From: Poseidonia sp.
Lineage (GTDB): Archaea > Thermoplasmatota > Poseidoniia > Poseidoniales > Poseidoniaceae
Direction: 5' to 3'
Length of the DNA: 64,000 nucleotides
NCBI GenBank assembly: GCA_030827475.1
Contig: JAUREJ010000002.1
Span: 18,027 to 82,026 of the forward strand
In this document: piece after piece, positions 4,825-43,274 of the stretch
Layout of the letters: each line of letters starts with the position of its first letter
Position numbering within the stretch: position 1 is the stretch's first letter
The notes under the pieces: model-generated
Told to the model about the DNA's origin: nothing
The model's database searches: none
The model's input: only the letters and a program-made list of their open reading frames with translations
Position numbers and translations under genes: made by a program

Positions 4825-6468
4825 TTACTCATCCTCAAGGGACTCGTAACTCTTGAAGAACTCGTCAATGTCGATGACGCCGTCTTCGTTCTCGTCGGCC
4901 TTGTGGAAAATGACCCGTGATTCGTCTCTGGTGAACGTGAAACCAAGGGCTTTGAGTGCGTTCTGGAACTCACGAAGCGTAAGGTGATTCTTGTCCCCGA
5001 AATCGGCAGCGTGAAACGCAGCAAGCCTTCGGTCGTGCTCTGTGGTGCTGGCGATCCCGAAGAGTTGCCGGAAGGTGGTGAAGGGCGTATCTTGGTGAGC
5101 GACGTAGTGCTTCCTACCGTAGAGCGCATAGGTGACGATGCCCGCTACCAGGGCGACGCCTCCGCCGATGTAGGCTTTTGAACCCATAAGTGAGATCAGG
5201 AAGGCCCCTGCAACGATTCCCCAAATGTTGAGGTACGGGTAGAGCGGGCCTTTGTAGGCCGGTTTCCAGTCGTGGACATGACTGGTTTGGCGCAAAACGA
5301 TGACACAGGAATTGATGAGCATGAAGATCATGATTTTGAATCCGGATGCGAGTTTCACCACGTCCTTTAGCGGCACGAAAACGATGGCAAGGCCCATGGC
5401 TAAGCCCGTGATAAGAATCGGAAAGTGAGGGGTTTCAAATCGAGCGTTCACTTCCTCCAACGGCTGTGGCAGGAGGTTGTCTCGTGACATGGCAAACAAG
5501 AATCTGGAAGAGGCGAGGATACCGGCCAAAGCCATGGAGATCATGGTCAACACCGAAATGATGGCGACGAGAACGCCAAACTCAGAGCCTGCGATGTGTT
5601 CTGCGAAGACCGAGATAGGATTTTCAATGACTTTGCCGTCTTTCATCCACCACTCGCCGGGAAGCACAGCCATCATCGCAAAAGCCAGCGCTGAGTAAAC
5701 CACCGTTGCGATGGCGAGGGACACCAAGATGCCTGCGGGCAGGTTCTTTTCGGGGTTTTTGACCTCGTCCCCGATGGCTGCCACTTTGGTGACCCCTGCA
5801 TAAGCAACGAAAACGAAAGCTGCGGTCTCTGCAAGCGTCCACATGTCGGTTGAGAAGGCCCCTTCGATGGGGACAGATGCGTCAAAATCAGCCGAAAACA
5901 ACGCCATGACGCACATGAGTACCAGCAAAGTAACCGTCACGAGCACGATGGGAGTTTGGATGGCTTTGACCTTGGACACGCCAAGAATGTTGACGAACGT
6001 GATGAGAACCAATGCCGATAACGAAAGGGTGTACATGCTCAGTTCGATGTCAAAATACGCCGTCACTACAGCGAAATAGGCCGAGAAACCGATGAGGGCG
6101 AAGGCGGATTTGAGCAGGAAAGACGACCAGAGGCCGAGCCCGCTGATGGTTCCAATCAAGGGGCCGTAGGTTCTTTCCAAGTACACGTACGACCCGCCGC
6201 TCGAGGGCATGCCCGAGGACAATTCAGATTTTGAAACGGCTCCCGGAAGCACCACGGAAGCGGCGAGCAAAAAGGCCAACCAGATTCCGGGTCCCATGAT
6301 TTCAGCGGCAAACGTCGGCGTGACAAAGATGCCGGGTAACATGGCCGAGAGGGAGATAATCACCACGCCTGCGAGTCCGATGGTCCGTGCGAACGTTGTT
6401 TTGAGTTCGGCACCTGCGGATTTGAGATCTCCTTTTGCGACGCTCTTGATGATGTTTTCAACGGCCAT
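4825..6468 (-). CDS. APC-family amino acid permease with C-terminal EF-hand pair
   Basis: About 12 TM helices; APC motifs GIFVTP, ELSSGMPSSGGSYVY, FVAYAG, EVKNPEKNLP, SRFLFAMSRD, TPH. Tail contains a canonical EF loop DENEDGVIDIDE (4861-4896). SD-like GGGGGTGA upstream. Confidence 0.9.
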   Translation of the reverse strand: MAVENIIKSVAKGDLKSAGAELKTTFARTIGLAGVVIISLSAMLPGIFVTPTFAAEIMGPGIWLAFLLAASVVLPGAVSKSELSSGMPSSGGSYVYLERTYGPLIGTISGLGLWSSFLLKSAFALIGFSAYFAVVTAYFDIELSMYTLSLSALVLITFVNILGVSKVKAIQTPIVLVTVTLLVLMCVMALFSADFDASVPIEGAFSTDMWTLAETAAFVFVAYAGVTKVAAIGDEVKNPEKNLPAGILVSLAIATVVYSALAFAMMAVLPGEWWMKDGKVIENPISVFAEHIAGSEFGVLVAIISVLTMISMALAGILASSRFLFAMSRDNLLPQPLEEVNARFETPHFPILITGLAMGLAIVFVPLKDVVKLASGFKIMIFMLINSCVIVLRQTSHVHDWKPAYKGPLYPYLNIWGIVAGAFLISLMGSKAYIGGGVALVAGIVTYALYGRKHYVAHQDTPFTTFRQLFGIASTTEHDRRLAAFHAADFGDKNHLTLREFQNALKALGFTFTRDESRVIFHKADENEDGVIDIDEFFKSYESLEDE

Positions 6469-6577: not shown

Positions 6578-7999
6578 TCATGCTGGCATGTGAACGATAA
6601 CCTTCATTTCCACTGCAATCGGCGTGGGCAACGCATCGATAGCGAGTGTCGTTCGGGTGGGACCCACCTTTCCGAGCGTTTCGGCCCATACTTCGTTGTA
6701 CCCTTGGAAGTCACGTTTCATGTCAACAAGGAACGTTGTGACGTCAACCACCTGCTCCATGGTCGCTCCGGCTTCCTCCACGATGCGTTTGACGTTCTCT
6801 ACAACGGCACGGGTCTGTGCCTTGATGTCGTAAGGCAGGGGTTCTCCGTTTTTGTCATGTATTGGCCCTCCGGGGATGGCGTTTGTTCCAGGTTGTCGCG
6901 GGCCAACGCCAGAGAGAAACAGCATGTCTCCAACTCGGCGAGCGTGAGGGTATGCTCCGACGGGTTTGGGAGCGGTGGTGGTGTTCACGGAACCCTTTGC
7001 TTCCGTTGGTTCCCACAAGTCCGGTCCGTTTGACGTTTCTTCGGTGACTTCGTCGTTTGTTTGACTCTGAACTTGGTCCTCTTCGACGATGTCCAGGACG
7101 TCCCGTTCGCCGTGGTAGTACTCAACGTCGTCTTCATCGTACTCCTTGTCGCCAACTCCGCTGGAGGCAGGGTCAAGATGAACGACGGCTCCACCTGCGC
7201 CGTGAATTGCTTCGTATGCCATCACACGACCCGTCAAGTCGTTCCGGTTTCCGTTCATGGCCGAAAGCCACCACATGGGCTTGAAAGCGACCACCTTCTG
7301 CACCCGAATTTGTTGGTGAATCGTTCGCGAGAGCTGGCCGACATCTTCAAGCCGCCCCTGTTTGAAGAATTCCAGAATTTTCCGGTTCCACTCGTCATCT
7401 TTGAGGGAGTGAATTTTGTCATCTTGAGGCGAGATGAAATCCGTAAACATCCGGTTGGAAAGCGACATGGCGGTGATGGCCACGGCGCGCCGTCCTTGGG
7501 CCTTGATGACGTCGAGACACGACTTTGCAAGAACCGTGGTTTCGCTTCGGTTGGCGTACATGTTTGAAGAAACGATGACAGCGGGGATGCTGTTGTCGGG
7601 GTTCAGCAGTGTCAACGCCACAACCGAACCGACATCGATGGGGAACCCTTTGTAGTTCACACAGCGGCTTTGTAACCCGCGTTTGCGATTCGCTTCGTCC
7701 CATGCATGGGCGAACTCAGCGTCAATGTTGAACGAGTAAGGTATGGAGCCCAAATCGTGAAAGTCATGGTCCACCATCACCCATTCCGGGTTCGGGTCGG
7801 ATTGAATCTGATGGCCGATGATGGACGGCCAGGTCGTCGAGTACACGATGAGCAAATCCGCTTCAAGATCTCGAATCGTTTGGGCCGCTTCATCAAATGC
7901 GTCCCGAAGCCTCTGCCAGCCGGGGTTTTGGTCCGGAGCGAGCACGGTGTGAGGGTGGACGGGCACGACAAACGAGGCCACGACTTCTCCAGAACTCAT
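6578..7999 (-). CDS. amnA-amnD: Fusion: 2-aminophenol 1,6-dioxygenase alpha subunit (LigB class III extradiol family) + acidic linker + RidA-family 2-aminomuconate deaminase
   Basis: The N-part matches the AmnA/CnbCa pattern (LIVYSTTW, VNYKGFPID.GS, SNMY, DDEWNRKILE, FKPMWW, GGAVV). The C-part matches the NbaF/AmnD-like RidA pattern (PKPVGAYPHARRVGDMLFLSGVGPRQ, FLVDMKRDF, PTRTT, IAVEMKV). Confidence 0.85.
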   Translation of the reverse strand: MSSGEVVASFVVPVHPHTVLAPDQNPGWQRLRDAFDEAAQTIRDLEADLLIVYSTTWPSIIGHQIQSDPNPEWVMVDHDFHDLGSIPYSFNIDAEFAHAWDEANRKRGLQSRCVNYKGFPIDVGSVVALTLLNPDNSIPAVIVSSNMYANRSETTVLAKSCLDVIKAQGRRAVAITAMSLSNRMFTDFISPQDDKIHSLKDDEWNRKILEFFKQGRLEDVGQLSRTIHQQIRVQKVVAFKPMWWLSAMNGNRNDLTGRVMAYEAIHGAGGAVVHLDPASSGVGDKEYDEDDVEYYHGERDVLDIVEEDQVQSQTNDEVTEETSNGPDLWEPTEAKGSVNTTTAPKPVGAYPHARRVGDMLFLSGVGPRQPGTNAIPGGPIHDKNGEPLPYDIKAQTRAVVENVKRIVEEAGATMEQVVDVTTFLVDMKRDFQGYNEVWAETLGKVGPTRTTLAIDALPTPIAVEMKVIVHMPA

Positions 8000-8904
8000 G
8001 CTTCGCTCACCTCATGGGCATGGCACGGCCATTCCACCACGGCGTTTCCCGTGCCGATGATGGTGCCGTACCCGTGAAGGATGGCGGGGTAATCCGGGAC
8101 GTCCAAGGTGGACAGAAGCCATGAGAGGCCCCCTCCGTCACTTTCCGCGATGGCCTGTTCGGTAAACTCCGGCATCTCATCGAGGATGCGTTGAGCCTGG
8201 CCGCTTCGCATGTAATCGATGATTCGCATGTCCCAAAGGTGCATGGCATGACTTGTGATGTGTTCTTTGCTCATGTCTTCGGGGACTTCGGATTCGGTGG
8301 TGAAATGCCGGTGGGAAAGGGAATTGCTGGCGAGGACGACCACGCGCTTTCCACTCGCTTCGATCGCCTTGCGCGTGACTTTGCCCAATTCGATCATGAT
8401 TTCCTGCATGACCTCGACCGAGTAGTACGCCGTTGAGCGGTTGCTTGAAATCACGACAAGGGGTTTGTCCCATTTGGGATTGAACAAATGGCCGGTGGTG
8501 ATGGTGCCGTAATCGACACGGAAGTCGGGGTTTTCCATCATCTTCACCGGCAATCCGGCGGCCTCTGCCTCGTCGTGAATCGCCTTTGCGAGTTCAACGT
8601 CCACGTTCATGTTGTAGTGGTAGCGAAACAGATTTGGGAAAATGGGGTCGACGGAGAGCCCTTCGAAGTGTTCCAAGCCCAAAAAATGGGTTCCGACATA
8701 CGTCTGCCAGTGCGGGGAGAGCAAAACGATGGCGTCGTAATCGATGTCGGCGAGTGAAGCACGAAGGCGTTCGTAGCCCCAGCGGAGTTGCTCCCATCCG
8801 CCTTCGGCTACAGGTTCGTTTTGGGGTGGGTTTTCCGCATACACCAGATGCGGTGGGTGAGGGGCGAGGCATCCTGCGACAATTTGCCCTTTGGCCATGC
8901 CCAT
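7996..8904 (-). CDS. amnB: 2-aminophenol 1,6-dioxygenase beta (catalytic) subunit
   Basis: Recognisable AmnB/CnbCb sequence: LAPHPPHLVYAENPPQNEP..GGWE.LRW.YER, SPHW, SVDPIFPN.FRY, DYGTITT.HL, SNSLSH.HF, PEDMSKE, YGTIIGTGNAVVEW. Fe ligands and catalytic His appear retained. ATGA overlap with the alpha gene at 7996-7999. Start may be the ATG two codons later. Confidence 0.9.
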   Translation of the reverse strand: MGMAKGQIVAGCLAPHPPHLVYAENPPQNEPVAEGGWEQLRWGYERLRASLADIDYDAIVLLSPHWQTYVGTHFLGLEHFEGLSVDPIFPNLFRYHYNMNVDVELAKAIHDEAEAAGLPVKMMENPDFRVDYGTITTGHLFNPKWDKPLVVISSNRSTAYYSVEVMQEIMIELGKVTRKAIEASGKRVVVLASNSLSHRHFTTESEVPEDMSKEHITSHAMHLWDMRIIDYMRSGQAQRILDEMPEFTEQAIAESDGGGLSWLLSTLDVPDYPAILHGYGTIIGTGNAVVEWPCHAHEVSEA

Positions 8905-8988
8905 CGCATGCCCCCGAGGTTTAATTCATCATCGCATTGAGGGCTTGCGACCTGCAACACCAAGGCCTAAACAGGGTGTGGTTCTCGC

Positions 8989-9486
8989 TTGGCCATGGAG
9001 GGAGAGGGTGGCGCAGTGGTGCTTCCTCTTGATGCACCGCTGCTTCCTTCTTCAGCAACCTGGAAGGAGACGTGGGACAACGTCGGTTTTCCCGCCTTCT
9101 TCGGCGCAGGTGTCGGAGCTGTGTGGCAGGTGGCGGTCCAACCTCGTCTAACCTACGACCTTCCCAACCCGGTTCAAGGAGCGTTATTGCTCATGTTGCT
9201 GCTCTCTCCTCTGTTTCATCGTTGGCTCACCGACCACGACCCTGCTCGCTGGAAAGAATACCTTGCCGGGGCATCGGTGCTCAGTGTTTTTTTTCTCGGC
9301 GTTTGGATGACGGGCTACGGGGCTTTGATTTGCGGAGGGTACGTGGCCATCGTCGTTTGGATCTGGGTCAGCACCTCGTGGTGGCGATTTCATCTCCCAC
9401 CGTTTCGCTCCGCTCTGTGGCACACCCTCGGAGTCAATGTTGGGGCCTTGGGGGGCTCATTGTTGGCGTACAACCTCTTCGGATGA
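8989..9486 (+). CDS. Hypothetical integral membrane protein (about 5 TM)
   Basis: Hydrophobic ORF filling the gap between amnB and panB; no recognised motif. Confidence 0.65.
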   Translation: MAMEGEGGAVVLPLDAPLLPSSATWKETWDNVGFPAFFGAGVGAVWQVAVQPRLTYDLPNPVQGALLLMLLLSPLFHRWLTDHDPARWKEYLAGASVLSVFFLGVWMTGYGALICGGYVAIVVWIWVSTSWWRFHLPPFRSALWHTLGVNVGALGGSLLAYNLFG

Positions 9487-10308
9487 TCACGACGTGTACG
9501 ATTCCTCGTCGCTGGGGAACGCTCCGGCGCGGACATCATCGCAGTATTGCTTGAGAGCGCCGTCAATCGATTCGGCGAGATTGAGGTAGCGCCGCAAAAA
9601 CCGAGGAGAGAAATCCATCGTGATGCCCAACAGGTCGTGCAGCACCAACACTTGGCCGTCAACGTCCGGGCCAGCACCGATACCGATGGTGGGAATGTTG
9701 AGGGCCTCGGAAACCCGCTTGGCGAGGTCACGGGGGATTTTTTCGAGCACGATGGCAAAACATCCGGCTTCTTCAAGCACCTTTGCATCGGCGATGAGTT
9801 TCTCGGCCTCTTCATCCTCCTTAGCCCGAACGGAATAGGTTCCAAATTTGTAGATGGATTGCGGCGTCAACCCCAAATGACCCATAACGGGGATGCCAGC
9901 GGTCAAAATGCGTTGAACGGACTCGACGATTTCTGCACCGCCCTCCAATTTGACGGCATGACCGCTCGATTCTTTCATGATTCGAATCGCTGACTCCAAT
10001 GCTTGGCGCGAGTTGCCCTGGTAGGTTCCAAAAGGCATGTCCACCACCAAGAGCGCCCGGTCAACAGCACGTTCCACGCACTGGGCGTGGTAGATCATGT
10101 GGTCAAGCGTCATCGGGACGGTCGTGACTTGGCCGGCCATCACGTTGGAAGCGGAATCGCCGACCAGGATGACGTCGACGCCAGCTTGGTCAACGAGTTT
10201 GGCCAACGAGTAATCATAGGCGGTGAGCATCGTGATTTTTTCACCGGCCCGCTTCATCTCCTGGAGGGTGTGCGTTGTGACCTTCCGGGCTGCGCCGTAA
10301 ACGGACAT
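9487..10308 (-). CDS. panB: 3-methyl-2-oxobutanoate hydroxymethyltransferase
   Basis: [46 protein letters not shown] motifs. ATG at 10308 with GGTGGAG upstream. Confidence 0.95.
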
Positions 10309-10350
10309 GGTTTCTCCACCGTCCATGGTGTTTTCAAATCCTCGCCCGAC

Positions 10351-11079
10351 TCAGTCGGTTTTGTCGTACAGGCCTACGAGTTGACTTTGCAGCTCGTTCA
10401 TCGCTTCTTCAGCCGTAGTGCAGGCGAGCAGTTGCTGTCGCCCTTCAAGGTCGTTCAGACAAAGGGCGGCGATGTTGTAAATCGAGGTGCGGGCCTCGCT
10501 GATCTGCTCCTCGCACAAGCGCTCAATCAAGTGGTCAAGCATGCTGCTATCGACGTTCATACCGTCCCCGGCCCGTCGTATGACCTCTGCGGCAAACCCC
10601 TCGAGAACGGTTTGGTCGGCATCGGTCAAGGCCCCCTCCTCCGGCAGGTAACGGACCTTTCCCGAAACGTACAGGCGTTGGTGCGGATGGTTTTCTGGCA
10701 CCCGCTCGAGCAAGGTGTGGACGTCGGGTGCAATGCCCCCTTCAATGAGGTCGGCAAGCGAGGGGTCGTGAAGTGGGGGAAGCGCGGGTTCAATCACCTG
10801 TTCAATGAAGAACCGACGGCCACCCTCAACGGTGATGAAGTGGTTCATGCCCCGGGTTTCATGGCGAACAATCACCGCTTCACAGCCGTGTCGCCGCGGA
10901 CCGTCCCAGCCGTTGGTGGGCTCAAACGGATCGTTGAGCACCAAACCGAAAGGGCGTTCGTCGAGGATGCAGGTGTCCAGCATTTGGCGGTAGCGAGGTT
11001 CGAAGACCCGCAACTCTTGGGTTTCTCCAGGGAAGAGGACCATGGGAAGGACAAACAACGGGAGCGTGTCTTCATCCAT
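10351..11079 (-). CDS. Stand-alone LON peptidase substrate-binding (LON N / PUA-like) domain protein
   Basis: LPLFVLPMVLFPGETQELRVFEPRYRQML..C...RPFGLV, G.RRF motifs. Start chosen at MDEDTLPLF; the ORF-track start overlaps the ALDH gene. Confidence 0.8.
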   Translation of the reverse strand: MDEDTLPLFVLPMVLFPGETQELRVFEPRYRQMLDTCILDERPFGLVLNDPFEPTNGWDGPRRHGCEAVIVRHETRGMNHFITVEGGRRFFIEQVIEPALPPLHDPSLADLIEGGIAPDVHTLLERVPENHPHQRLYVSGKVRYLPEEGALTDADQTVLEGFAAEVIRRAGDGMNVDSSMLDHLIERLCEEQISEARTSIYNIAALCLNDLEGRQQLLACTTAEEAMNELQSQLVGLYDKTD

Positions 11080-11117
11080 GCGCAAAGCAAACATCGGTGG
11101 CCTTTGAAGATGTGTTC

Positions 11118-12566
11118 TCAGGGTTGTTGAATACAGACGTTGGTCATCTCGGAGAAGAAGGCCATCGACCAGTCGCCCCCTTCCCGGCCGACGCCGGACT
11201 GCTTGACGCCACCAAACGGCGTACGCAGGTCTCGGTTCAGCCAAGTGTTTACCCAAACGATGCCCGTTTCCATCCGCTTTGCAAAAGCATGACCTCGCTC
11301 GATATCCGCAGTCCACACCGAGCCCGCCAGCCCGTATTCCGTGAGGTTCGCCATCTCCACCGCTTCGTCCTCGCTGGCGAACGTATGCAAGGTCACGACC
11401 GGGCCGAAAATCTCCTCGGTAGCCGTGCGGCAGGATGCAGGGAGGCCGGCAATCACGGTGGGGCGAAGGAAAGCACCTTCGGAGGAGACGCCGACGACAG
11501 GTGCCTGTTCGCTCAAACCTCCGGTGAGCACGGTGCCGCCTTCTTCGATACCGAGGCGAATGTAGGATTCCACCTTGGCCTTGTGGTCTTGGGAGATGAC
11601 CGTGCCCATTTGGGTCGCCTCGTCCCGGGGGTCTCCCAAGCGAAGTTCCTCCACTTTCTCCACGAATTTTGCGGCGAAGATGTCGTAAATCGTTTCATCC
11701 ACCAAAATGCGGGAGCCGCACAGACAGACCTGCCCTGAATTGGTGAAAGATGCCCGCACCAGGCTCTCCATGATGTCGTCGAGGGGCGCGTCATCAAGCA
11801 CCACCGTGGCGTTTTTGCCGCCCAATTCAAGAGAGAGTTTCTTGAACATGGGCGCAGCGGTCGCCGCAACCAAGCGTCCGGTTGCCGTTCCCCCGGTGAA
11901 CGAGATGCCGCGAATGTCGGGATGTTCGACGATGGCTTGGCCCACCTCCGGGCCGTACCCGTGAACAAGGTTGAACACGCCGGCGGGCAAGCCCAAGCCG
12001 TGAACGGTTTTGGCGAGGAAGTCCGCCGTGAGCGGGGTGAGCTCCGAGGGTTTGGCGACGATGGTGTTGCCCATCAACAAGGCCGGGGCAACTTTCCACG
12101 ACAGCAAATAGAGCGGAAGGTTCCAAGGCGTGATGAGCCCCACAACACCCACCGGTGAGCGATGGACGTGGTTCACGGCTCCGTGATCGGAAAACGTGGG
12201 GTCTTCGTGACCTTTGGCGTGGTGAGCGAAGAACCGAAAGTTAGCGACGGAGCGAGCAGCGTCCACTCGCCGAGCCAGTGAAATCGGTTTGCCGGTGTCG
12301 AGGCTTTCGAGTTGAGCGATGGTTTCCGCCTCCGCCTCCAAGGCGTCAGCAATGCGTTCCAGCCATGCGATGCGCTGCTCCATCGTCGTGCTGCCCCAAG
12401 CCGTCGCTGCTTCTTTGGCCGCCTCCGTGGCTCGTTTGACATCGATGGCCTCTGAACGGGCTACTGCGGTGATGACGGTGTTGGTCGCTGGGTTGATGGT
12501 GTCCAAGGTTTTGCCCGAAGCAGCCTCAACAAAGGCGCCGTTGATGTAGTTGCGGACAGGCTCCAT
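11118..12566 (-). CDS. amnC: 2-aminomuconate 6-semialdehyde dehydrogenase (ALDH8A1/AmnC-like)
   Basis: RSVANFRFFA, PWNLPLYLLSWK, KPSELTP, FTGGTATG, LELGGKN, GQVCLCGSR (catalytic Cys), EEIFGPV, RDLRTPFGG. These match the hydroxy/aminomuconate semialdehyde dehydrogenase subfamily. Confidence 0.85.
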   Translation of the reverse strand: MEPVRNYINGAFVEAASGKTLDTINPATNTVITAVARSEAIDVKRATEAAKEAATAWGSTTMEQRIAWLERIADALEAEAETIAQLESLDTGKPISLARRVDAARSVANFRFFAHHAKGHEDPTFSDHGAVNHVHRSPVGVVGLITPWNLPLYLLSWKVAPALLMGNTIVAKPSELTPLTADFLAKTVHGLGLPAGVFNLVHGYGPEVGQAIVEHPDIRGISFTGGTATGRLVAATAAPMFKKLSLELGGKNATVVLDDAPLDDIMESLVRASFTNSGQVCLCGSRILVDETIYDIFAAKFVEKVEELRLGDPRDEATQMGTVISQDHKAKVESYIRLGIEEGGTVLTGGLSEQAPVVGVSSEGAFLRPTVIAGLPASCRTATEEIFGPVVTLHTFASEDEAVEMANLTEYGLAGSVWTADIERGHAFAKRMETGIVWVNTWLNRDLRTPFGGVKQSGVGREGGDWSMAFFSEMTNVCIQQP

Positions 12567-13684
12567 CAGTTCACCTCTGGGTCAAAATGCCAGCGGTCTC
12601 TGTCGGGGTCCCATTCGTCCCACGTCGGCACGGTTTCCAAGATGTCAAGGTAGGCATCGGGCACGATGCCCGGCACGATGAAGGCTTTTTGCCGGTGCAA
12701 AGGGTAGGGGTTTCGCAGGTTGATGCCCAAGACTCCGAGCAGGGCTCGGGCGACGTACCATGTGGCTTGAGAGTTCCATCCGTGGGCGATCTTGACGACG
12801 ATACCCAGGCCTTTGGGGTAGTCGGGATGTTCAATGGCCATGCCGAGCAAGCCGTCCGCTCCTTCTTTGGCGATGACCCGACCTTCGCCGGCCTTGAGCA
12901 CCGTTGAATCGAGCCGGTTGAACCCTCCAACGAGGTCAGGATGGCGAACCATGGCCTCCCAAATCCAATCGTCGTCCTTGTCACGAACGAGCCCGGCATA
13001 GATTTGCGCAAGTTCGGAAACGGTGTTGGAAACGGTCGGCAAACCGCACCCGTCCTTGGCAATGCGCAACGGCTTCCAATCCTCGCCGAGGTAGGTTCGC
13101 AGTTGCTCCATGTAAGCGTGGAAGACCTCGTGGGTGGGCAGGGTGTAACCGGCGCGGTTCCAACCTTTCTTCCGACAGCCTCGGAGGATGGCGGCGTGCT
13201 CTCCCGAGCAGGTGTGGAACCAACGGCGAGGCCGCCGCACCTGTCGGCCAAACTGAATCAGCGGGACGTCGAGCGGCGTCAGCATCAAGGGCCATTCGGA
13301 TTCGTTCAAGAGCGACTGGGCGGCCGCAACGTGCTCCGTATCTCCGTTGTGCGACGCCACAGCGATGGCTTTCTGTTCCCACGAACAATCGGCGAGTTCT
13401 TCCGTGAAGGCCTTGAGCATGAAGGGCTTCATCATCGAACGACCGTAGCAGAGGACGTTACCTCCAAAGGAGTGGATCACCTCGTCACCGTGTGCCCAAG
13501 CCACGGCGCCGTGAATGGTGGTTTCCGATACGCCGTTTCGTCGGTAATCCACCAGCGGCTCCCAAGCCACTTCTCGCCCCGTGGGAATGCCCTCCACCTG
13601 CTCGCCAAGCGGTGAGGACGGATACATGGCCGAACCGGGTTTTCCGGGTTGAACGGCGGAGTAGGTGTCGTGATGGATGCCCAT
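12566..13684 (-). CDS. Class 3 (Rhizobium etli-type, asparaginase II family) asparaginase-like hydrolase, variant active site
   Basis: RSMMKPF, ASHNGD, TCSGEH (canonical NCSGKH), DGCGLP, AKEGADG (canonical AKLGADG), GIVVKI..G. TGA/ATG one-base overlap with the ALDH at 12566. SD GGGAGG upstream of the ATG at 13684. Confidence 0.85.
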   Translation of the reverse strand: MGIHHDTYSAVQPGKPGSAMYPSSPLGEQVEGIPTGREVAWEPLVDYRRNGVSETTIHGAVAWAHGDEVIHSFGGNVLCYGRSMMKPFMLKAFTEELADCSWEQKAIAVASHNGDTEHVAAAQSLLNESEWPLMLTPLDVPLIQFGRQVRRPRRWFHTCSGEHAAILRGCRKKGWNRAGYTLPTHEVFHAYMEQLRTYLGEDWKPLRIAKDGCGLPTVSNTVSELAQIYAGLVRDKDDDWIWEAMVRHPDLVGGFNRLDSTVLKAGEGRVIAKEGADGLLGMAIEHPDYPKGLGIVVKIAHGWNSQATWYVARALLGVLGINLRNPYPLHRQKAFIVPGIVPDAYLDILETVPTWDEWDPDRDRWHFDPEVN

Positions 13685-13685
13685 C

Positions 13686-14936
13686 TCACGACCTCCCCAA
13701 GAGGGCTTCAACGCGGGGAACGACGCGCTCCATGTAGGCCGTCATGTTTCGACACACGCGCTCGGAATCGTGGTTGAAGAAATCAAACCACGCCATGATG
13801 CGGTCGTCGGCGTGAAAGCGCTCAACCATCTGCCTCGCTACTTCCTCAACGTTGCCGATGAGGGCGTTGTCCGCAGCACGGTTCACTTTGTCGGGGTCGA
13901 TGGTGCCTTCAAGGGCGTTCCAGTACGCACTCAAGGCGCGCTGTGCCTCTTCCTGAGCAGCCTGAGATTGTTGCTCCGGTGTGAGCCCCGCCTCATCGTT
14001 GAGGAAAACAAAACTCGTTCGGGGCATGTCGGACCGTTTCCATTCACCGCCGTCGGCGTGGTACACTTCGGCCATGCGCTCGTGCGTGGCGTCGATGATT
14101 TCGGGCGACGTGATGGAGAGATTGAACACCTTGACGGGAAGAATGCTGTTGACGAAGGTCTGGGCCTTCGGGTCGTGCGTTCCTGCAACCAAGCCGAGCA
14201 GTTCTCTTCGGAAATGGCTTGGCACGATTTTCAGGTCTTCAAACACGTATCGTGAGGGGATGGCGATCGAGTTCGGGCGGTGTTCGAGGGCCTCGAACTC
14301 CACAGCAGCATCCTGCACGGCCAGCCAATCCTCGTCGCGTCGGAAGTTGCCCCGTGTGAGCACGGTGGACCGAATCATCTCGGAATTGATGACATCGCCC
14401 CTCAGCAAACGAAGGAAAATCTCGGCGGCTTCCATGAAAATTTGCCCTCGAAGCGCGGGCCAAGCCGCCTCTTCAACGGCGGTCCTCGGCACGACGCCAT
14501 AGGGGCGCGCCATGAACTCAAACCGGCCTGCGGAAAATCCGACGTGAAGCCGGCGATGTTCACTCGGCTCCAATCCGTGGAGGCTGAGAACGTTGGCGAT
14601 GCGTTCGGCTTGGGCGATCGGTCCACCCGATGCGAGGATGGAGATGACCGCACTGCCGATCTCGATGTTTCTCGTGCGGCGAAACGATTCCAAAGCGAGT
14701 TGGGGGAAATCCGTGCAGAGACCGACTTCACCTTTCCAATGCGGCACAACGGGTTGATGGTTGCTCTTTTGCGTCTCAGTTGAAAGGTGCGCTTGGGCGA
14801 TCCATCCCGTTTTGAACCCGAGTTGGTCTGCGCACACCAGTTGGTGGAAGTAGTTCCGTAGCATGGTGGCTTCGTCGGGAATGACCCCGTTTTCGTCAGG
14901 GGTCTGGGAAATGGAGAAGAAGATGTCATGTTCCAT
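13686..14936 (-). CDS. Luciferase-like (LLM class) flavin-dependent monooxygenase
   Basis: ADQLGFKTGWIAQAH, TRNIEIGSAV, AERIA, RLHVGFSAG..EF, and C-terminal ALIGNVEEVARQM...ERVVPRV; typical bacterial-luciferase TIM barrel. Stop lies 1 nt from the next start. Confidence 0.85.
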   Translation of the reverse strand: MEHDIFFSISQTPDENGVIPDEATMLRNYFHQLVCADQLGFKTGWIAQAHLSTETQKSNHQPVVPHWKGEVGLCTDFPQLALESFRRTRNIEIGSAVISILASGGPIAQAERIANVLSLHGLEPSEHRRLHVGFSAGRFEFMARPYGVVPRTAVEEAAWPALRGQIFMEAAEIFLRLLRGDVINSEMIRSTVLTRGNFRRDEDWLAVQDAAVEFEALEHRPNSIAIPSRYVFEDLKIVPSHFRRELLGLVAGTHDPKAQTFVNSILPVKVFNLSITSPEIIDATHERMAEVYHADGGEWKRSDMPRTSFVFLNDEAGLTPEQQSQAAQEEAQRALSAYWNALEGTIDPDKVNRAADNALIGNVEEVARQMVERFHADDRIMAWFDFFNHDSERVCRNMTAYMERVVPRVEALLGRS

Positions 14937-14989
14937 GCCCACGCACCGATTCCCGCCACGGCGCCATGGCTCATAATGGGTATGGCCCT

Positions 14990-15835
14990 TCAGGCTGAGC
15001 CTTCATCGCCGGGCGTATTTCTCAGTTCGGTCAAATCATGAATCCGCTGGCGAAGCTGCGCAGGTGCCGGAATGTCAACGGCCAGGAATTCATGTAGCGA
15101 ATCGGACAGCACGAGCATGGCGGTTTCGTAGTCCTGTTGGATTTCAGCGATATCGGCTAGACCCCAACGCGCCACGAGTTGACCCGAAAGGCTGCCGAGG
15201 TCTTGGGCTCGCTCAAGGGATTGGTTGAACAGGTCTTGAGCGGCACCAAACTCCCCGATGGTCGCTTGACAGTGAGCCAGGTCGGCGATGGCTTCCATCT
15301 GCCCTTCTTCGTCCTTGAGTTTGGTCAGCAATTCAAGCCGTTCGGTCCCGATGGCGATGGCGGTGTCCTCGTCGTGCTGCCGTTTTGCGATGCTCATCAA
15401 CAAGGCCATTCCGTACGCCATGCCCTGAAAGTCTTCGACCGCCGTCCGCAAACGCAGGGCGCGCTGAGCCGTAGCCCTCGCTTCGTCGAGGTGACCTTCG
15501 GACATTTGGACCAGGGCGACGTAGTGTTGAACGGCAGCGGTGAGCGATTGTACTCCCTCCATGCCCTCGGTTTCTTCGGCGAGCGCCAGAAAACTATCCA
15601 CCTTGGCGTTCATCCGTTTCAAACCTTCAAACCGGGCCCAACCTCGCTCCTCATCGTTCGTTGCCACCGAGGTTGCGTGGTCAAGCAGGCGTTCAACCAA
15701 CTCGGCTTCGCCGACGTCCTCTGCAAGGGGCATCAACCGGAGGGCCAGGGAGGTGTTGATGTGGTCCATGGATCCACCGGAGGTCAACACCTCGAGGATT
15801 TGGCGAGCCCGTTCGGGCGAAACTTCACCGTTCAT
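14990..15835 (-). CDS. TPR-like alpha-helical repeat protein
   Basis: Repeated helix pairs (A..HY..LV....GHLDEA...AQRAL; ADLAHCQA..GEFGAAQDLFNQSLE; WGLADIAE.QQDYETA). SD GAGGTGA; 9 nt downstream of the SDR stop. Confidence 0.75.
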   Translation of the reverse strand: MNGEVSPERARQILEVLTSGGSMDHINTSLALRLMPLAEDVGEAELVERLLDHATSVATNDEERGWARFEGLKRMNAKVDSFLALAEETEGMEGVQSLTAAVQHYVALVQMSEGHLDEARATAQRALRLRTAVEDFQGMAYGMALLMSIAKRQHDEDTAIAIGTERLELLTKLKDEEGQMEAIADLAHCQATIGEFGAAQDLFNQSLERAQDLGSLSGQLVARWGLADIAEIQQDYETAMLVLSDSLHEFLAVDIPAPAQLRQRIHDLTELRNTPGDEGSA

Positions 15836-15844
15836 GCGTTCACC

Positions 15845-16660
15845 TCAAATCGAGCGTAGTCGGCCGCCGTCAACGGCGAGGCTCACGCCACGTATACCGC
15901 CAGAGGCGGGCAGGCATAGGAAAGTGATGGCGCTGGCGGTTTCGAGCGGGTCAATGAGACGACCGATGGGGACTTGGTCCAGCCAACCTTTGCGAACATC
16001 GGTTGCGGATTTCCCCGTTCGCTCTTGGATCGATGCGGAAAGGTTGCCCAAGCGTTCGGTATCGGTAAAGCCCGGCAAGACGTTGTTGATCGTCACGCAG
16101 GGCGGCAATTCGTTGGACAAGGATTTCGCCCAGGACGCCATGGCTCCTCGCAACGTGTTGGAAAGGCCGATGTTCGGTATGGGCTCTTTCACGGAGGTCG
16201 AAATGATTTGGACGATGCGTCCGTATCCTTCGGCTTCCATACCGGGAACTGCGGCCTTCACGAGGGTGTGAGCGGCGTGGAGGTGGCGCTTGAAAGGGGC
16301 CTCAAAGTCGTTGACCTCGTTGCCCAAGAGCGGTCCACCCGGAGGGCCACCTGCGTTGTTGATGAGCACGTGAACCGGTCCGAGAACTTCCGTGGCCGAG
16401 GCAAAGGCGGGTGCGATGCTTTCGGTGTCTTCCAAATCGAGCATCAGGGCTTGATGCGTCCCGTCACCGAGGGTGGAGAGCGTTGCGCACAGTTCGGTAA
16501 GGGCCGCCCCGTTTCGTGCGCAAACGGTGACGTTGGCGCCCGCTTTTGCCAACATTTTGGCCGTCGCTTCACCGATGCCCTTGCTCGCACCGCAGACGAA
16601 GGCGTGTTTGCCTTTGAGCGCTGACGAAGCGTAGGGGAAGTCGTTGCCGAGCAGGTCCAT
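15845..16660 (-). CDS. Atypical SDR oxidoreductase (BKR-like subgroup; the type I recall adjacent to kynurenine-pathway genes)
   Basis: VCGASKGIG Rossmann motif, LINNAGGPPGG, ISTSVKEPI, SNTLR in place of YxxxK, NNVLPG.T.T.RL, DGG. Confidence 0.9.
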   Translation of the reverse strand: MDLLGNDFPYASSALKGKHAFVCGASKGIGEATAKMLAKAGANVTVCARNGAALTELCATLSTLGDGTHQALMLDLEDTESIAPAFASATEVLGPVHVLINNAGGPPGGPLLGNEVNDFEAPFKRHLHAAHTLVKAAVPGMEAEGYGRIVQIISTSVKEPIPNIGLSNTLRGAMASWAKSLSNELPPCVTINNVLPGFTDTERLGNLSASIQERTGKSATDVRKGWLDQVPIGRLIDPLETASAITFLCLPASGGIRGVSLAVDGGRLRSI

Positions 16661-16697
16661 GGTGACGGGATGGCTCCGTAGGTCATAGGCCTTGGCC

Positions 16698-17444
16698 TTA
16701 CAACCAATCGAGCACGGTGTTGAGTTGAACCAACCAATCGTCAGAGGCGACGTCGATGATGTCGTAATGGTCACCGGGCAGCCAAAGCTTCTGGACGTCG
16801 GCACCCTTGGCCTTCATGACCCTCGCATAGGTTTCCGATTGCTCAAGGGGAACGTCGACGTCGTGCTCGCCGTGGAAGAGCAGCACGCTGGTTTGCGGCG
16901 GGTGGTCCACCGGGTTGAGTTGGCGCCAGAGGGTTTCGTTCTCTTCAGGCGAACAACCGATCCACCTTCGGACGGCATCACCATCGTCGGACAGGCGAGC
17001 ACGGTCGGCACCGATGAGGTCCGTCAAGGGTGCTTGAGCAATCGCCAACCAGGGCCGGCGCTCGGCTTTCGCACTCATCAAGAGCGCCAGTTGGCCACCG
17101 GCGGAATGCCCCATGACCATCGAGCGGGTCATGTCGATGCCCGGGAGCAACGCCAACTGTCCCCATGCCCGCAACACGTCGGAGAGGGTGTCCATCCAAA
17201 CCCCTTCTTCGCCTTCCTCCCATCGCTTGAATTCGATGTTCCAAGCGGCGACACCCGCTTCGGCGAGGTCTTCTGCGATGGGTTGCATCAACTCAAGGGT
17301 GTACTTCGTTTTCCAGAAGCCACCGTGAATGAGCATGATGCATGGGATGCCTTCGTCCTTTTGAAACGGCGACGGGTCATCGGGCATGTGGAGGTCAGCG
17401 AACTGCCACGCTTCTGCACCCCACTGCATCCGGTCAACGGCCAT
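16698..17444 (-). CDS. Alpha/beta hydrolase, HGGxW (HSL/arylformamidase-like) family
   Basis: IHGGFW oxyanion motif, GHSAGG nucleophile elbow, D.DVP acid, GDH His. Confidence 0.85.
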   Translation of the reverse strand: MAVDRMQWGAEAWQFADLHMPDDPSPFQKDEGIPCIMLIHGGFWKTKYTLELMQPIAEDLAEAGVAAWNIEFKRWEEGEEGVWMDTLSDVLRAWGQLALLPGIDMTRSMVMGHSAGGQLALLMSAKAERRPWLAIAQAPLTDLIGADRARLSDDGDAVRRWIGCSPEENETLWRQLNPVDHPPQTSVLLFHGEHDVDVPLEQSETYARVMKAKGADVQKLWLPGDHYDIIDVASDDWLVQLNTVLDWL

Positions 17445-19627: not shown

Positions 19628-19798
19628 GCTCCGTGGGCAGCGGTGAAGAACATGAAGCATTCGCTGAGTTCGCTTGGAGAGGCGAAGAGGTGAGGGACTT
19701 TCCCTGATTGCTGGCTCCCTCCTCTCTGCTGGGGGAAGCATGAGCATTCGGCCGTGGACGGCCCGAAATCTCTTGAAGAGCATCGTCTTGGTTCACCC

Positions 19799-22700
19799 AT
19801 GTCCAGCCAGCGGGCTCGTGCGGTTTCATGCGTTGTGGTTCTGGTGTTGATGAGTCTCGCACCGTTGGCGATGACGGTCGGTGCATCGTCTTCCATCCTG
19901 CTCTCCAGCGATGTCCGTCACGTCGTTCTTGAGCCAGGTCAGTCCACCAACGTCACCTTGACCATTGAAAACAACGGGTCGAGCATCACCTCCTATAACC
20001 TCACCCTCAACAACAGCGGTCTGAGCAGCGTTTGGGACATTGTTCCCGTCGATAGCGTGGTGAGCAACGTCTTTCCCACTTGGTCAAAGAACACCACGAT
20101 CGTGGTTCGTCTGCTCGAGGGTGCCACGGTCGCCGACAGCGGTTCCTTCACGCTCACCGCTACGGACACGTCCACCAATGCCAGCGAATCCCACGAAGTC
20201 CATGTTTCGGTTGCCCCATGGTATCAACCCTCCCTGAGTGCGGCCTCTTCGTCCCGCGTGGACATGGCTGCAGGTGCGAGTGTCAACCTCACCTACACGG
20301 CAACCAACTATGGAACCGTAACGGACACGTTCTTGCTCGATGTTGAAGTTGAACCCGACCTCTCCGGCTGGTGGTCCAATCAAACGAACAACACCTCCGG
20401 GAACACCAGCGGAAACACCACAACATCGCCCTCGATGAACGTCCTCATGTATGGGAACAGCTACACTGCAGGGAACAATCTCGGTTCAGTGGTCGAGTCC
20501 ATCCTCGATGCAGACGGCTACAACGGAAGCGTGACCCCGCTCTCGGGAGGTGGCATGATGCTCGATGACCACTGGCAGAACGTCAACACCACCGGGCATC
20601 AATGGAACACGAGCCTTCGAGGCAACACATGGGACTACGTCGTTTTGCAAGACCAGAGTCAGGTGCCCTCCTTGCCCACCAACGATTCCTCTTGGCAGGC
20701 CAGCAAAAACGCATCAATTCACCTCAGCGGTTTCATTGAGGACGAGGGTGCTGAGGCCGTGCTCTTCATGACATGGGGGCGGCGAAGCGGAGAATCCGGG
20801 GCGCAGTGGCATCAATATGCCAACATCAATCAAAATTTCACCTCGATGCAGGAACGCCTCACGGAAGGTTATGTTCGGTTTGCTGAGAACATCACGTCTG
20901 CCGGCCACACCGTTTGGATTGCGCCCGTTGGGTTGGCCTACAAAACCGTCCATGACGGTGTCGTCGCTGCAGGCGGTGACCCAACCGCTTCAGGCAACCT
21001 GTTCTACGACCTTTACACCTCGGACGGAAGTCACCCCTCCCTTTCGGGCTCGTACTTGGCCGCATGCGTGTTGCATTCGACCGTGACGGGCGAAACATGC
21101 GTTGGGAGCAACGATTCCATCAACCTGTCTGCGAGCGTCAAACTCGAACTCCAACAGGCAGCCGACGACACCGTGTTCAATCAAACCGCAGGCATGTCCT
21201 ACTACCCTTGGGAAGTTGGCGGGACCGCCGCTTTTGGCTTGGGCGCATCCGTGCCGTCAGGCTGGTACCTTCAGTGGGTTGATGACGAAGTGACGAACCT
21301 TGCTGCAGGGGCCTCCCAAATAGCTACCCTCTCCGTGACCGTACCCGCTGATGCAGCCCCAGATTTCTACGGATACAGGCTGACCGTGGGATCGACCAAT
21401 GGGAACATCACGTCTTCAACCGTCCTTGTCATCGAAGTCCTCCCCGACGCTGATGTTGCGCTTGCCTTCCTCGACCAAGATGCTGATTTCCTTCCAGGGC
21501 AGAGCACCCTGACCTCGGTGCAGGTGACCAACACCGGGAACACCCCCCTCGATATCGATTGGACGGTGGAAACCCCCGTTGGCGAGATGTGCAGTGCTGC
21601 ATTGCAAGATGCTCAAACCCTGGACCTTCTGCCCGAAGCGCAATCCACCGTGGCCTTGCAGGTGGACGTGGCTTCCGATGCCTCCAGTGCGGACACCTGC
21701 GAAGTGACCCTCTCCGCTCATGTTCCCGTCGACGACAGCACGCAAATGCTTGAGCAACTCGTCTTCGTCATCAATGTGGACGAGCGGGTCAATTTTTCGC
21801 TTTCCGGACCTGCAACCTCGCTCTCGTTCGAGCCAACCACTGGAGCGACCTATGAGGTGCGCGTTGACAACGACGGAAGCGATGAAGTGACATTTTACCT
21901 GAATGTTGAACCTGCAAGCGGCTTGACAACCGTCCTCGTGACCGCCTCAGGCGTCACGGTGGCCCCCGGGGAGACCGGCATCTGGTCGGTCAACACCAAA
22001 GGCGACGCTGGAACGGCGGGCGCCTTTGCTCAGGCGTTCACCGCAACTCACGCAGGCGTCACCAACGGCGTTTCCGTAGAAGTTCGTCTCCTCGAGGTGC
22101 CCGAGGTCGCGCTGACGGGCCCGGGCGAAGACCGTTTGCTTGTGACCCCCGGCGGTGTTTCGTCGATGAACCTCACCCTCACCAACACCGGTACCGCAAA
22201 CCTCAGCCTCGCCTCGTTGCTCTCGGGCCTTCCTGCTGGCATCACGGCGAGCGTCTCTCCTTCTTCGTTGACCCTCAACACCTCCTCCTCGGTGGTGGTG
22301 GTGCTCGCCGTTGAAGCTGCGGTAAGCGCTGCACCGTCGTCTCATGAGGTGGGCTTGACCTTCAGCGGCGATGGGGTTTCGGCCGTCTTTGGATTTGATC
22401 TGATCATCGTTGAGCGCAGCGATGTTATCGCCAATGGAGTGGGGAGTGTGCTGCTTGCGACGCCAACTCAAACCACCCAATACATGGTGGATGTCACCAA
22501 CCTTGGTACGCAATCTGATGTTTACATCGTGGATTGGTCAACGGAATCGGAAGGTTCATGGTACGAATTTACGGTCAGCCCAACCACATTCCAGCTGAGT
22601 GCCGGGAGCACACAAACCGTTGCTATCAGCGTACGTGAAGTAGGTCAAGGGGCGCCGATTGGTGGCGTGAAACACGTCTTCACGGTCACTTCGACGAGCG

Positions 22701-23773: not shown

Positions 23774-24556
23774 TCAGAGCCGCTGCGCCACGAGCAAAAA
23801 AGCCGTGTGCCCAAACGGGCCGTTGACGGGTCGCATGCCACCCTTCGAAGCACGCCCCCACTCTCTTTCCATCAATTCGCCGGCCCATTCCACGGAAAGA
23901 CCTGCCTCTTCACATGCTTCCCAAGCGCGTTCCAGTTGGGAGCTGACCGGACAGTAGCAGGCAAGACGACCGCCTGAATTGAGGAGGCCGGCCGTGGCAG
24001 CGATGGCGGGGGGGTGGTCGGGCAAGTCCAAAACGATGGCGTCCACTGCCTCAACAAGCTTCTCGATTTCCTCCACCGTTTCTTCGATCAGCCCGGTGAG
24101 GTGGTGGTGGGTCGGGAACGCTGCCCAACATTGCTTCGCCCGTTCAAGGTTTTCAAGCCCAACTTCGGCGTGCTCTTCCCGGGGTTCCACGGTGATGTGC
24201 ACCCCTTTTTCGCCGAGCACCCGAGCGATGTAGAGGGATAAACCCGCACTTCCGATGCCGGCTTCAAGAACGGTATCGCCAGGGCCCAGGCCAAGTCGAG
24301 TGAGGAAGAATCCGGCGTCTTTGCTTCCGATGGTTTGTGCTCTTCGCACCATGCCCCGGGCGAGTTCAGGAACACGTGGGGCGAGCCGCTGCAGTTCCTT
24401 TTGTCCAATCGCCACATGCTGACCGATGTCGATGTTGCGGAGGACTTCGGTCGCATTGAACACACCAAGACCCTTGACCTTTTGCGGCTCATCCACCAGG
24501 GCGACGACGTAGGTTTTCCCGTTGCTTTCGCCCAGAACAGCCCATGCATCGGTCAC
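23774..24556 (-). CDS. trmI: tRNA (adenine-N1)-methyltransferase (TrmI/GCD14 family)
   Basis: AQTIGSKD, VLEAG.GS.GLS, VLDLPD, CYCP...Q, and C-terminal MRP...GHTAFL. Confidence 0.85.
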   Translation of the reverse strand: MTDAWAVLGESNGKTYVVALVDEPQKVKGLGVFNATEVLRNIDIGQHVAIGQKELQRLAPRVPELARGMVRRAQTIGSKDAGFFLTRLGLGPGDTVLEAGIGSAGLSLYIARVLGEKGVHITVEPREEHAEVGLENLERAKQCWAAFPTHHHLTGLIEETVEEIEKLVEAVDAIVLDLPDHPPAIAATAGLLNSGGRLACYCPVSSQLERAWEACEEAGLSVEWAGELMEREWGRASKGGMRPVNGPFGHTAFLLVAQRL

Positions 24557-24685
24557 GCTCCGCCGAAACCGGGCGAGGTGTTAAGGTTCTCTTTTCCCCT
24601 CCACAGGCCAACCCAACGGAGCCCGGACTGGAGGATGACTCGCAAGAGCGAGTGTTTCATATACCCTCCAAAGACTGGTGAAATT

Positions 24686-43153: not shown

Positions 43154-43274
43154 AGCGCTCCGTTCCTCCAATCGTATATGAGTAGTGGTTAAGGCTCGTC
43201 GCAGCACCTCTCATGATAGATTGGTAATTCAAATACCCAAAAATCGTTTTATGCTGGATGGGGCTGGGAGGGAC

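Follow-up and report, generated by a model that had tools for sequence, protein, structure and literature searches.

Two canonical kynurenine pathways share the same beginning, in which tryptophan 2,3-dioxygenase (TDO) is followed by a deformylation: one is the TDO-KynB-kynureninase sequence, which leads to anthranilate, the other runs through kynurenine 3-monooxygenase (KMO), kynureninase, 3-hydroxyanthranilate 3,4-dioxygenase (3-HAO) and aminocarboxymuconate semialdehyde decarboxylase (ACMSD). A quite different set of enzymes carries out the meta-cleavage of 2-aminophenol, as encoded by amnBACD in Pseudomonas sp. AP-3 and Burkholderia xenovorans LB400 and by cnbCaCb in Comamonas CNB-1, in clusters that are fed by nitrobenzene or by added 2-aminophenol. 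Genes for 2-aminophenol meta-cleavage are also found in the ARO microcompartment loci of Actinobacteria, where the natural precursor of 2-aminophenol has been called unknown (Doron et al., 2023, PMC10470539). We analyse here a window of 64,000 nucleotides, meaning the whole stretch of DNA under study, from the archaeon Poseidonia sp. of Marine Group IIa (MGIIa); it is contig C25 of a metagenome-assembled genome of 1.82 Mb, 87% complete, and its proteins have their nearest public relatives without exception in Poseidonia/Poseidoniaceae. One strand of this window carries homologues of AmnB, AmnA, AmnC and AmnD together with a divergent luciferase-fold protein (LLM, for luciferase-like monooxygenase) and a homologue of class-3 asparaginases (AsnII). 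Judging from sequence and genomic context, we consider that this locus is probably the form taken in MGIIa by a widespread catabolism of tryptophan that needs no kynureninase and that would proceed by Baeyer-Villiger oxygenation followed by hydrolysis by AsnII.

The chemical logic that we propose has a described counterpart. In the 4-hydroxyacetophenone pathway of Pseudomonas fluorescens ACB, a Baeyer-Villiger monooxygenase (BVMO) named HAPMO, followed by an arylesterase, turns an aryl ketone into an aryl ester and then into a phenol that enters ring cleavage. The same order, Baeyer-Villiger aryl migration and then hydrolysis, would hold in the archaeal locus, with different proteins: HAPMO is a single-component type I BVMO that uses FAD and NADPH, whereas the oxygenase considered here has a luciferase fold and the hydrolase an asparaginase-II fold. 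Compared with the classical amn clusters, this type of cluster is joined to TDO, a formamidase, LLM and AsnII. AmnA and AmnD are fused in the present locus; the archaeal clusters lack AmnE/F/G/H, and bacterial versions of this cluster type have two genes of the fumarylacetoacetate hydrolase (FAH) family in the position of AmnE/F. Compared with the canonical kynurenine pathways, the side chain would be released as aspartate instead of alanine, and neither a pyridoxal phosphate enzyme nor a decarboxylase would be needed. The proposed route and that through KMO, kynureninase, 3-HAO and ACMSD would nonetheless converge on 2-aminomuconate semialdehyde, 2-aminomuconate and the step of 2-aminomuconate semialdehyde dehydrogenase (AMSDH).

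We may now follow the route along its enzymes. TDO, encoded elsewhere in the genome, would produce N-formylkynurenine, as homology or linkage indicates, and an alpha/beta hydrolase with an HGGxW motif would take off the formyl group, a task that would fall to a Formyl_trans_N protein in MGIIb and MGIII and to KynB in bacteria. LLM, supplied with reduced FMN, would act on kynurenine or N-formylkynurenine, placing an oxygen atom between the aryl ring and the carbon of the ketone by a Baeyer-Villiger reaction in which the aryl group migrates. This would give the beta-aspartyl ester of 2-aminophenol, which an O-to-N acyl shift could turn into N4-(2-hydroxyphenyl)asparagine; AsnII, as a serine hydrolase, would split this ester or anilide into L-aspartate and 2-aminophenol. 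The later steps are again assigned by homology or linkage: AmnBA would open the ring of 2-aminophenol to give 2-aminomuconate semialdehyde, AmnC would convert the latter into 2-aminomuconate, and the AmnD domain would yield 4-oxalocrotonate by deamination. As far as gene order can tell, the linkage places LLM and AsnII between TDO and the formamidase on one side and AmnBA on the other. Baeyer-Villiger oxygenation followed by hydrolysis would be the only chemically economical path that we can see from kynurenine to the substrate of AmnBA by means of a flavin oxygenase and a serine amidase or esterase. With somewhat more reserve, we also lean towards the broader proposition that this would be a third exit from kynurenine, besides kynureninase and KMO; that tryptophan would be the long-sought natural source of 2-aminophenol for meta-cleavage pathways of the amn type; that the route would belong to the core metabolism of MGII and MGIII; and that it would have moved between archaea and marine Myxococcota.

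The argument is carried by the recurrence of the gene pair. LLM was found in 118, AsnII in 120 and AmnB in 116 of 121 genomes of Poseidoniales, in all 21 genera. The whole region is syntenic among Poseidoniaceae, so that adjacency within this family proves little when taken alone; in several of its members (L046-L048, L057) the LLM-AsnII-AmnC block is inverted with respect to panB-amnBA and to the TPR-SDR-hydrolase genes (SDR, short-chain dehydrogenase/reductase). Counting archaea and three bacterial phyla together, AsnII is the gene immediately after LLM in 184 of the 198 loci that have enough flank, the four groups of queries contributing 78/78, 40/44, 62/64 and 4/12 loci. The sequence-only reading, made earlier from the letters of this DNA, had proposed to look for a joint occurrence of LLM, a class-3 asparaginase and amn genes in other archaea and bacteria, and the outcome was favourable, the pair being present in MGIII, Bdellovibrionota/Oligoflexales, Myxococcota and Actinomycetota. 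Distant homologues are the more telling ones. In MGIII, 17 loci display a co-directional operon of overlapping genes in the order TDO-SDR-LLM-AsnII-AmnC-(alpha/beta hydrolase)-AmnB-AmnA-RidA-Formyl_trans_N. At an MGIIb locus (L191) the order is Flavin_Reduct-Formyl_trans_N-SDR-LLM-AsnII-AmnC.

The bacterial loci extend the association to formamidase. In Bdellovibrionota, Oligoflexales and Myxococcota, with LLM at 35% identity, AsnII follows LLM directly in 40 of 44 loci. A KynB domain comes after AsnII in 17 bacterial loci, within a single AsnII::KynB reading frame in 16 of them, and TDO stands beside it in 14. This fusion hints that N-formylkynurenine may be the substrate of the oxygenase, deformylation coming last. 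Four loci (L128, L129, L132, L139) have amnB-amnA-amnD-amnC and two FAH-family genes directly upstream of LLM. In marine Myxococcota, where the order is SDR-LLM-AsnII-AmnC-...-AmnB-AmnA::RidA-KynB, the proteins of the cluster (L219, L220, L145-L148) are 58-74% identical to their archaeal counterparts, with 72-74% for AsnII; together with the AmnA::RidA fusion that both have in common, this suggests that the cluster as a whole was recently transferred between these bacteria and the MGII/MGIII archaea. Among Actinomycetota, cultured strains included, TDO adjoins LLM, which is followed by AsnII or by an Abhydrolase_1 protein: the order is OMT-TDO-OMT-LLM-AsnII in Lentzea sp. (L214; OMT, O-methyltransferase) and TDO-BD-FAE hydrolase-transporter-LLM-Abhydrolase_1 in Actinokineospora guangxiensis (L218). 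One LLM homologue (P0122, locus L090) stands beside PrnB and trpAB, with TDO and bacterial microcompartment shell genes within about 8 kb. The actinomycete versions may represent biosynthetic uses of the module or a link to the ARO microcompartments, a link that comes from this one locus, the archaeal locus having no shell genes. An M48 peptidase gene is seen at the edge of the cluster in a member of Bdellovibrionaceae (L139:3188-3967) and in MGIII (L157:17746-18579), which may be a coincidence.

A second line of evidence comes from what the genomes hold besides the cluster. Profile searches over 21 genomes of Poseidoniales, the present one included, were counted at the family cut-off. TDO (PF03301) passed it in 21/21 genomes, while kynureninase was found in none of the 21; cyclase-type KynB, the kynurenine formamidase, was likewise found in 0/21, six control genomes being positive, and 3-HAO in 0/21, no control genome being positive for the latter family either. 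The pattern anticipated by the sequence-only reading, TDO without kynureninase and 3-HAO, is thus the one observed throughout. It follows that N-formylkynurenine can be made and that the known ways onward are missing, a conclusion tempered by the fact that KMO, ACMSD and indoleamine 2,3-dioxygenase were not searched for. A role of the cluster in the synthesis of NAD was considered and rejected, as kynureninase and 3-HAO are absent and AmnC and AmnD direct the flux to catabolism.

The assignment of LLM required a structural model. In Pfam and NCBIfam it has sub-threshold matches only, that to Bac_luciferase (PF00296) reaching 18.8 bits, under the gathering threshold of 27.9, and a sequence search of the PDB gave no match at E <= 10. 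The AlphaFold (AF2) model, built from an alignment of 32 sequences (A1), has a pLDDT of 91.5 and a pTM of 0.90. Foldseek returned 113 matches in the PDB at E <= 0.001, of which the best 50 are all LLM or F420-LLM proteins; among the matches listed, TM values go up to 0.78 with 12-16% identity, and they include bacterial luciferase (LuxA), RslO1, SsuD, RutA, F420-dependent members and 3,6-diketocamphane monooxygenase, with 4uwm, 1luc and 3fgc at a probability of 1.0. The model establishes the luciferase TIM-barrel fold as that predicted for LLM. This is the fold of the type II BVMOs (2,5- and 3,6-diketocamphane monooxygenases) and of bacterial luciferase, from which LLM differs by its low identity, by failing the Pfam model and by some 70-90 residues in excess of templates of 320-360 residues; its substrate, in contrast to those of type II BVMOs, would be an amino acid bearing an aryl ketone. 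The family is small, with 307 representatives at 50% identity, mostly fragments, among 1.84 billion, and the initial homology search had returned only near-identical MGII proteins.

We can nevertheless narrow down its cofactor. An F420-dependent LLM was rejected, for CofD was over the cut-off in 0/21 genomes, methanogen and haloarchaeal controls being positive; this absence of F420 biosynthesis makes a flavin the likely cofactor and a flavin monooxygenase the likely activity. Type II BVMOs and luciferase are two-component FMN enzymes, and the MGIIb cluster has a flavin reductase gene (Flavin_Reduct, PF01613, E 1e-8; L191:7717-8379), two genes upstream of LLM and at this MGIIb locus only; a Flavin_Reduct gene exists in 17 of the 21 genomes, including the present one. 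We therefore propose, from the sequence and its surroundings, that LLM would be an FMN-dependent (N-formyl)kynurenine Baeyer-Villiger monooxygenase.

AsnII belongs to the same family and fold (PF06089) as the class 3 L-asparaginases ReAV and ReAIV of Rhizobium etli (7os3, 8cly), to which it aligns with E about 1e-16 and roughly 25-30% identity. The two Ser-Lys tandem motifs are kept: aligned with ReAV, AsnII retains SxxK (as S-M-M-K), A-S-H and K-x-GAD (as K-E-G-A-D), as well as both cysteines of the zinc site. That site, which we take from the ReAV structures to be Cys-Lys-Cys, has its lysine replaced by glutamate in the archaeal protein (CSGKH becoming CSGEH), while the homologue from Bdellovibrionaceae keeps it; AsnII further differs from ReAV and ReAIV by its fusion to KynB in bacteria. 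The LLM gene upstream, the KynB fusion and the amn genes together suggest that the substrate is not asparagine but a beta-aspartyl compound with an N4-aryl or O-aryl group, and we propose that AsnII would be the hydrolase releasing L-aspartate together with 2-aminophenol, or 2-formamidophenol. A fusion of AsnII with the aldehyde dehydrogenase (ALDH), suggested by open frames of about 830 codons, was rejected: a single locus of 78 has no stop between the two, and AsnII is truncated there.

The ring-cleavage enzymes have close relatives of solved structure. AmnB matches 8ihg_A (E 2.2e-110) and 3vsg_B (1e-104) over residues 3-294, that is, over its full length and free of indels, and its motifs APHPPH, SPHW, LSH.HF and GTGNAVVEW are identical or nearly so to those of the solved beta subunits. 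The gene that overlaps amnB by 4 nt encodes an AmnA part (residues 6-274; E 7e-40 to alpha subunits) followed by a RidA part (residues 344-472) whose best match among RidA structures is the 2-aminomuconate deaminase 6izh (E 6e-27). This AmnA::RidA fusion also occurs in the marine Myxococcota (L219, L220), whereas MGIII has two separate genes. By homology, AmnB and the paralogous, non-catalytic AmnA would form a 2-aminophenol 1,6-dioxygenase, a class III extradiol enzyme of the LigB type, with activity on 2-aminophenol predicted. As for the ALDH, its top seven PDB matches are all AMSDH (E 2.8e-146 to 1e-134), and its best NCBIfam match, OH_muco_semi_DH, reaches 555 bits, the equivalog cut-off being 693. 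Queries with the bacterial AmnE/F-type FAH proteins gave no matches in this genome. Its sole gene of the FAA_hydrolase family (G000:C17:25799-26371) lies far from the cluster and looks unrelated.

Deformylation may have been solved more than once. The HGGxW hydrolase has the oxyanion motif (as HGGFW) and the GxSxG nucleophile elbow (as GHSAG) of eukaryote-type kynurenine formamidases. It is present in 57 of 60 MGIIa genomes against 1 of 61 MGIIb genomes; the Formyl_trans_N protein, conversely, belongs to 31 cluster loci of MGIIb and MGIII and to none of the MGIIa loci, nor to this genome. Examples are found at L191:8434-9183 and L157:16995-17711, with 53% identity between the MGIIb and MGIII proteins. 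This complementary distribution fits a non-orthologous replacement of the formamidase. The similarity of the HGGxW hydrolase to the kynurenine formamidase of Drosophila (4e11) is weak (E 5.8e-4), and carboxylesterases match better; this weak similarity, taken with its position and the phyletic pattern, makes it a candidate for the N-formylkynurenine formamidase of MGIIa. The Formyl_trans_N protein may remove the formyl group of N-formylkynurenine or pass it to folate. The SDR is atypical, with an invariant serine and arginine in place of the canonical catalytic tyrosine and lysine (alignment A2). In MGIII, MGIIb and marine Myxococcota its gene immediately precedes LLM, with translational coupling between the two and, in L157 of MGIII, a 1-nt overlap. 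The SDR could be a flavin reductase partner of LLM, or a downstream reductase acting on 4-oxalocrotonate.

Other readings of the same genes have to be weighed, and the nearest one changes only the order of events. LLM would oxygenate N-formylkynurenine, AsnII would release aspartate and 2-formamidophenol, and the formamidase, whether KynB, the alpha/beta hydrolase or the Formyl_trans_N protein, would act last. Such an order would account for AsnII::KynB as a fusion of consecutive hydrolytic steps and for the Formyl_trans_N gene that closes the MGIII operon, and it has chemical reasoning in its favour, since a formyl group on the nitrogen would keep the acyl group from shifting from O to N and would leave the ketone less deactivated by push-pull effects. 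We still find it rather unlikely, the BD-FAE hydrolase gene of Actinokineospora being located directly after TDO, the classical place of a formamidase that acts first. A more radical change would put hydroxylation at the beginning: LLM would be a KMO analogue acting at C3, AmnBA would cleave 3-hydroxykynurenine, and AsnII would cut the acyl C-C bond of the ring-opened enaminone to yield aspartate and 2-aminomuconate semialdehyde, with AmnC and AmnD to follow. The gene set and the end products would be the same, so that linkage fits equally, and the hydrolase that comes after LLM in Actinokineospora belongs to Abhydrolase_1, a family that includes the C-C hydrolases of meta-cleavage products. 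Yet LLM and AsnII make up the tightest pair of all: the two are often coupled, and KynB is found fused to the pair or beside it, which points to consecutive steps, whereas in this scheme the dioxygenase would stand between them. Furthermore, in Oligoflexales and actinomycete loci the LLM-hydrolase module is found with TDO and with no amn genes nearby, and AmnB is collinear, from end to end, with enzymes for plain 2-aminophenol. We know of no precedent for C-C hydrolysis by a beta-lactamase/glutaminase-like fold, nor of LLMs of this type that hydroxylate aromatic rings, and hold this scheme to be improbable.

It might also be that the genes have nothing to do with one another, the amn genes serving on exogenous aminophenols or nitroaromatics, with LLM as, for example, an F420/FMN oxidoreductase and AsnII as a true asparaginase, lying nearby by inherited synteny. 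This would agree with the synteny of the whole region within Poseidoniaceae and with the housekeeping genes interspersed in it, and amn genes come classically from degraders of nitrobenzene and 2-aminophenol (PMC3790839). The LLM-AsnII pair turns up again, however, in MGIII and three bacterial phyla, where the surrounding genes are unrelated; TDO is co-operonic with it in MGIII and AsnII is fused to a kynurenine formamidase; the biosynthesis of F420 is absent; and hardly any genome in an entire order of oligotrophic marine archaea lacks the genes. We regard a mere juxtaposition as very improbable.

Baeyer-Villiger oxygenation of kynurenine followed by AsnII hydrolysis meets difficulties of its own, and several observations speak against it. 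In this genome TDO (C47:13060-14187, with the PF03301 match at C47:13108-14112, 209 bits) sits on a different contig with none of the pathway genes around it, in a region of PurP-like and CtaA/CtaB genes. The cluster itself is broken up by panB and by genes of the TPR and Lon-N-like types, and the archaeal clusters have no AmnE/F-type FAH genes for the end of the pathway. Some homologues do not follow the rule: two LLMs (L086, L088) stand alone, and two Myxococcota loci (L143, L144) read LLM-AmnC-KynB with no AsnII nearby. The Foldseek matches do not separate BVMOs from other LLM chemistries, and the type II BVMOs known so far take cyclic ketones or aldehydes as substrates rather than aryl ketones.

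If the proposed route is true, it would be a new branch of one of the best-studied amino-acid pathways. A full-text search found no description of a route from kynurenine to aspartate and 2-aminophenol in the literature searched. It would provide first functions for two enzyme families, a tiny divergent LLM clade and context-specific homologues of class-3 asparaginases, and would explain why genes for 2-aminophenol dioxygenase occur widely among organisms that have never met nitroaromatics. MGII and MGIII are among the most abundant planktonic archaea; as part of their core metabolism, the route would tell us how protein-degrading marine archaea regain carbon and nitrogen from tryptophan, in the form of aspartate, ammonia and formate. 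It can be tested directly with two recombinant enzymes and commercial substrates, and cultured actinomycetes, among them Lentzea sp., Actinokineospora guangxiensis CGMCC 4.7154 and Paractinoplanes pyxinae, carry the module.

The layout of the Poseidonia locus is given in Table 1. The sequence-only reading had placed the HGGxW hydrolase, the SDR, LLM, the asparaginase, the ALDH, amnB and amnA/amnD on a single strand, and all of them are found where it had put them. The junctions are also as it described them: a gap of 1 nt separates the LLM stop from the AsnII start, and AsnII and the ALDH overlap in TGATG. The open frame of LLM extends over 13686-14942, with the real ATG at 14936, and that of AsnII over 12566-13711, with its ATG at 13684, just downstream of a GGAGG motif. 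By their sequence, the LLM/AsnII/ALDH junctions are those expected of translational coupling. Three genes within the span had escaped that reading: a TPR gene between SDR and LLM, and a Lon-N-like gene and panB between the ALDH and amnB.

Table 1. Genes of the locus and its downstream neighbour, with positions in the Poseidonia window.
Feature	Position	Strand	Basis
Alpha/beta hydrolase (HGGFW, GHSAG)	16698-17444	minus	Pfam BD-FAE 1.9e-16 (BD-FAE/Peptidase_S9/Abhydrolase_3 type)
SDR, atypical	15845-16804, likely start near 16621	minus	Pfam adh_short
TPR-repeat protein	14990-15835	minus	Pfam TPR_12, sub-threshold
LLM, divergent luciferase-fold protein, 416 aa	13686-14936	minus	Bac_luciferase sub-threshold; AlphaFold model and Foldseek
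AsnII, class-3 asparaginase homologue (PF06089)	12566-13684	minus	Pfam 6.5e-49, 167 bits
AmnC-like ALDH (2-aminomuconate-6-semialdehyde dehydrogenase)	11118-12566	minus	PDB relatives, NCBIfam
LON_substr_bdg protein (Lon-N-like)	10351-11316	minus	Pfam
PanB (panB; ketopantoate hydroxymethyltransferase), housekeeping	9487-10326	minus	Pfam 4e-115; NCBIfam over cut-off
AmnB, predicted 2-aminophenol 1,6-dioxygenase beta (catalytic) subunit	7996-8904	minus	PDB relatives
AmnA::AmnD (RidA) fusion	6578-7999	minus	PDB relatives, both parts
Amino-acid permease with C-terminal EF-hand pair	4825-6468	minus	Pfam AA_permease_2 7e-37, EF-hand_7

These additional genes have a restricted distribution. The TPR gene between SDR and LLM is kept in Poseidoniaceae loci and does not occupy that position in MGIII or MGIIb; the insertion of panB and the Lon-N-like gene between amnC and amnB is met in MGIIa only. 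The Lon-N-like gene is not in the MGIII or bacterial clusters, and its product is probably an MGIIa insertion outside the pathway; as listed, its reading frame overlaps the 3' end of the ALDH gene by about 200 nt, which means that its true start probably lies further downstream. The permease gene, directly downstream of amnA::amnD, is syntenic in most Poseidoniaceae loci, and its product is a possible importer of a substrate of the pathway, tryptophan or kynurenine. Elsewhere in the window, three very large open reading frames of 1339, 1271 and 2241 aa are found on the plus strand (19754-23773, 24335-28150 and 43185-49910). In a Pfam scan of the first two, the first shows only sub-threshold Ig-like domains and the second no matches; all three are probably surface proteins.

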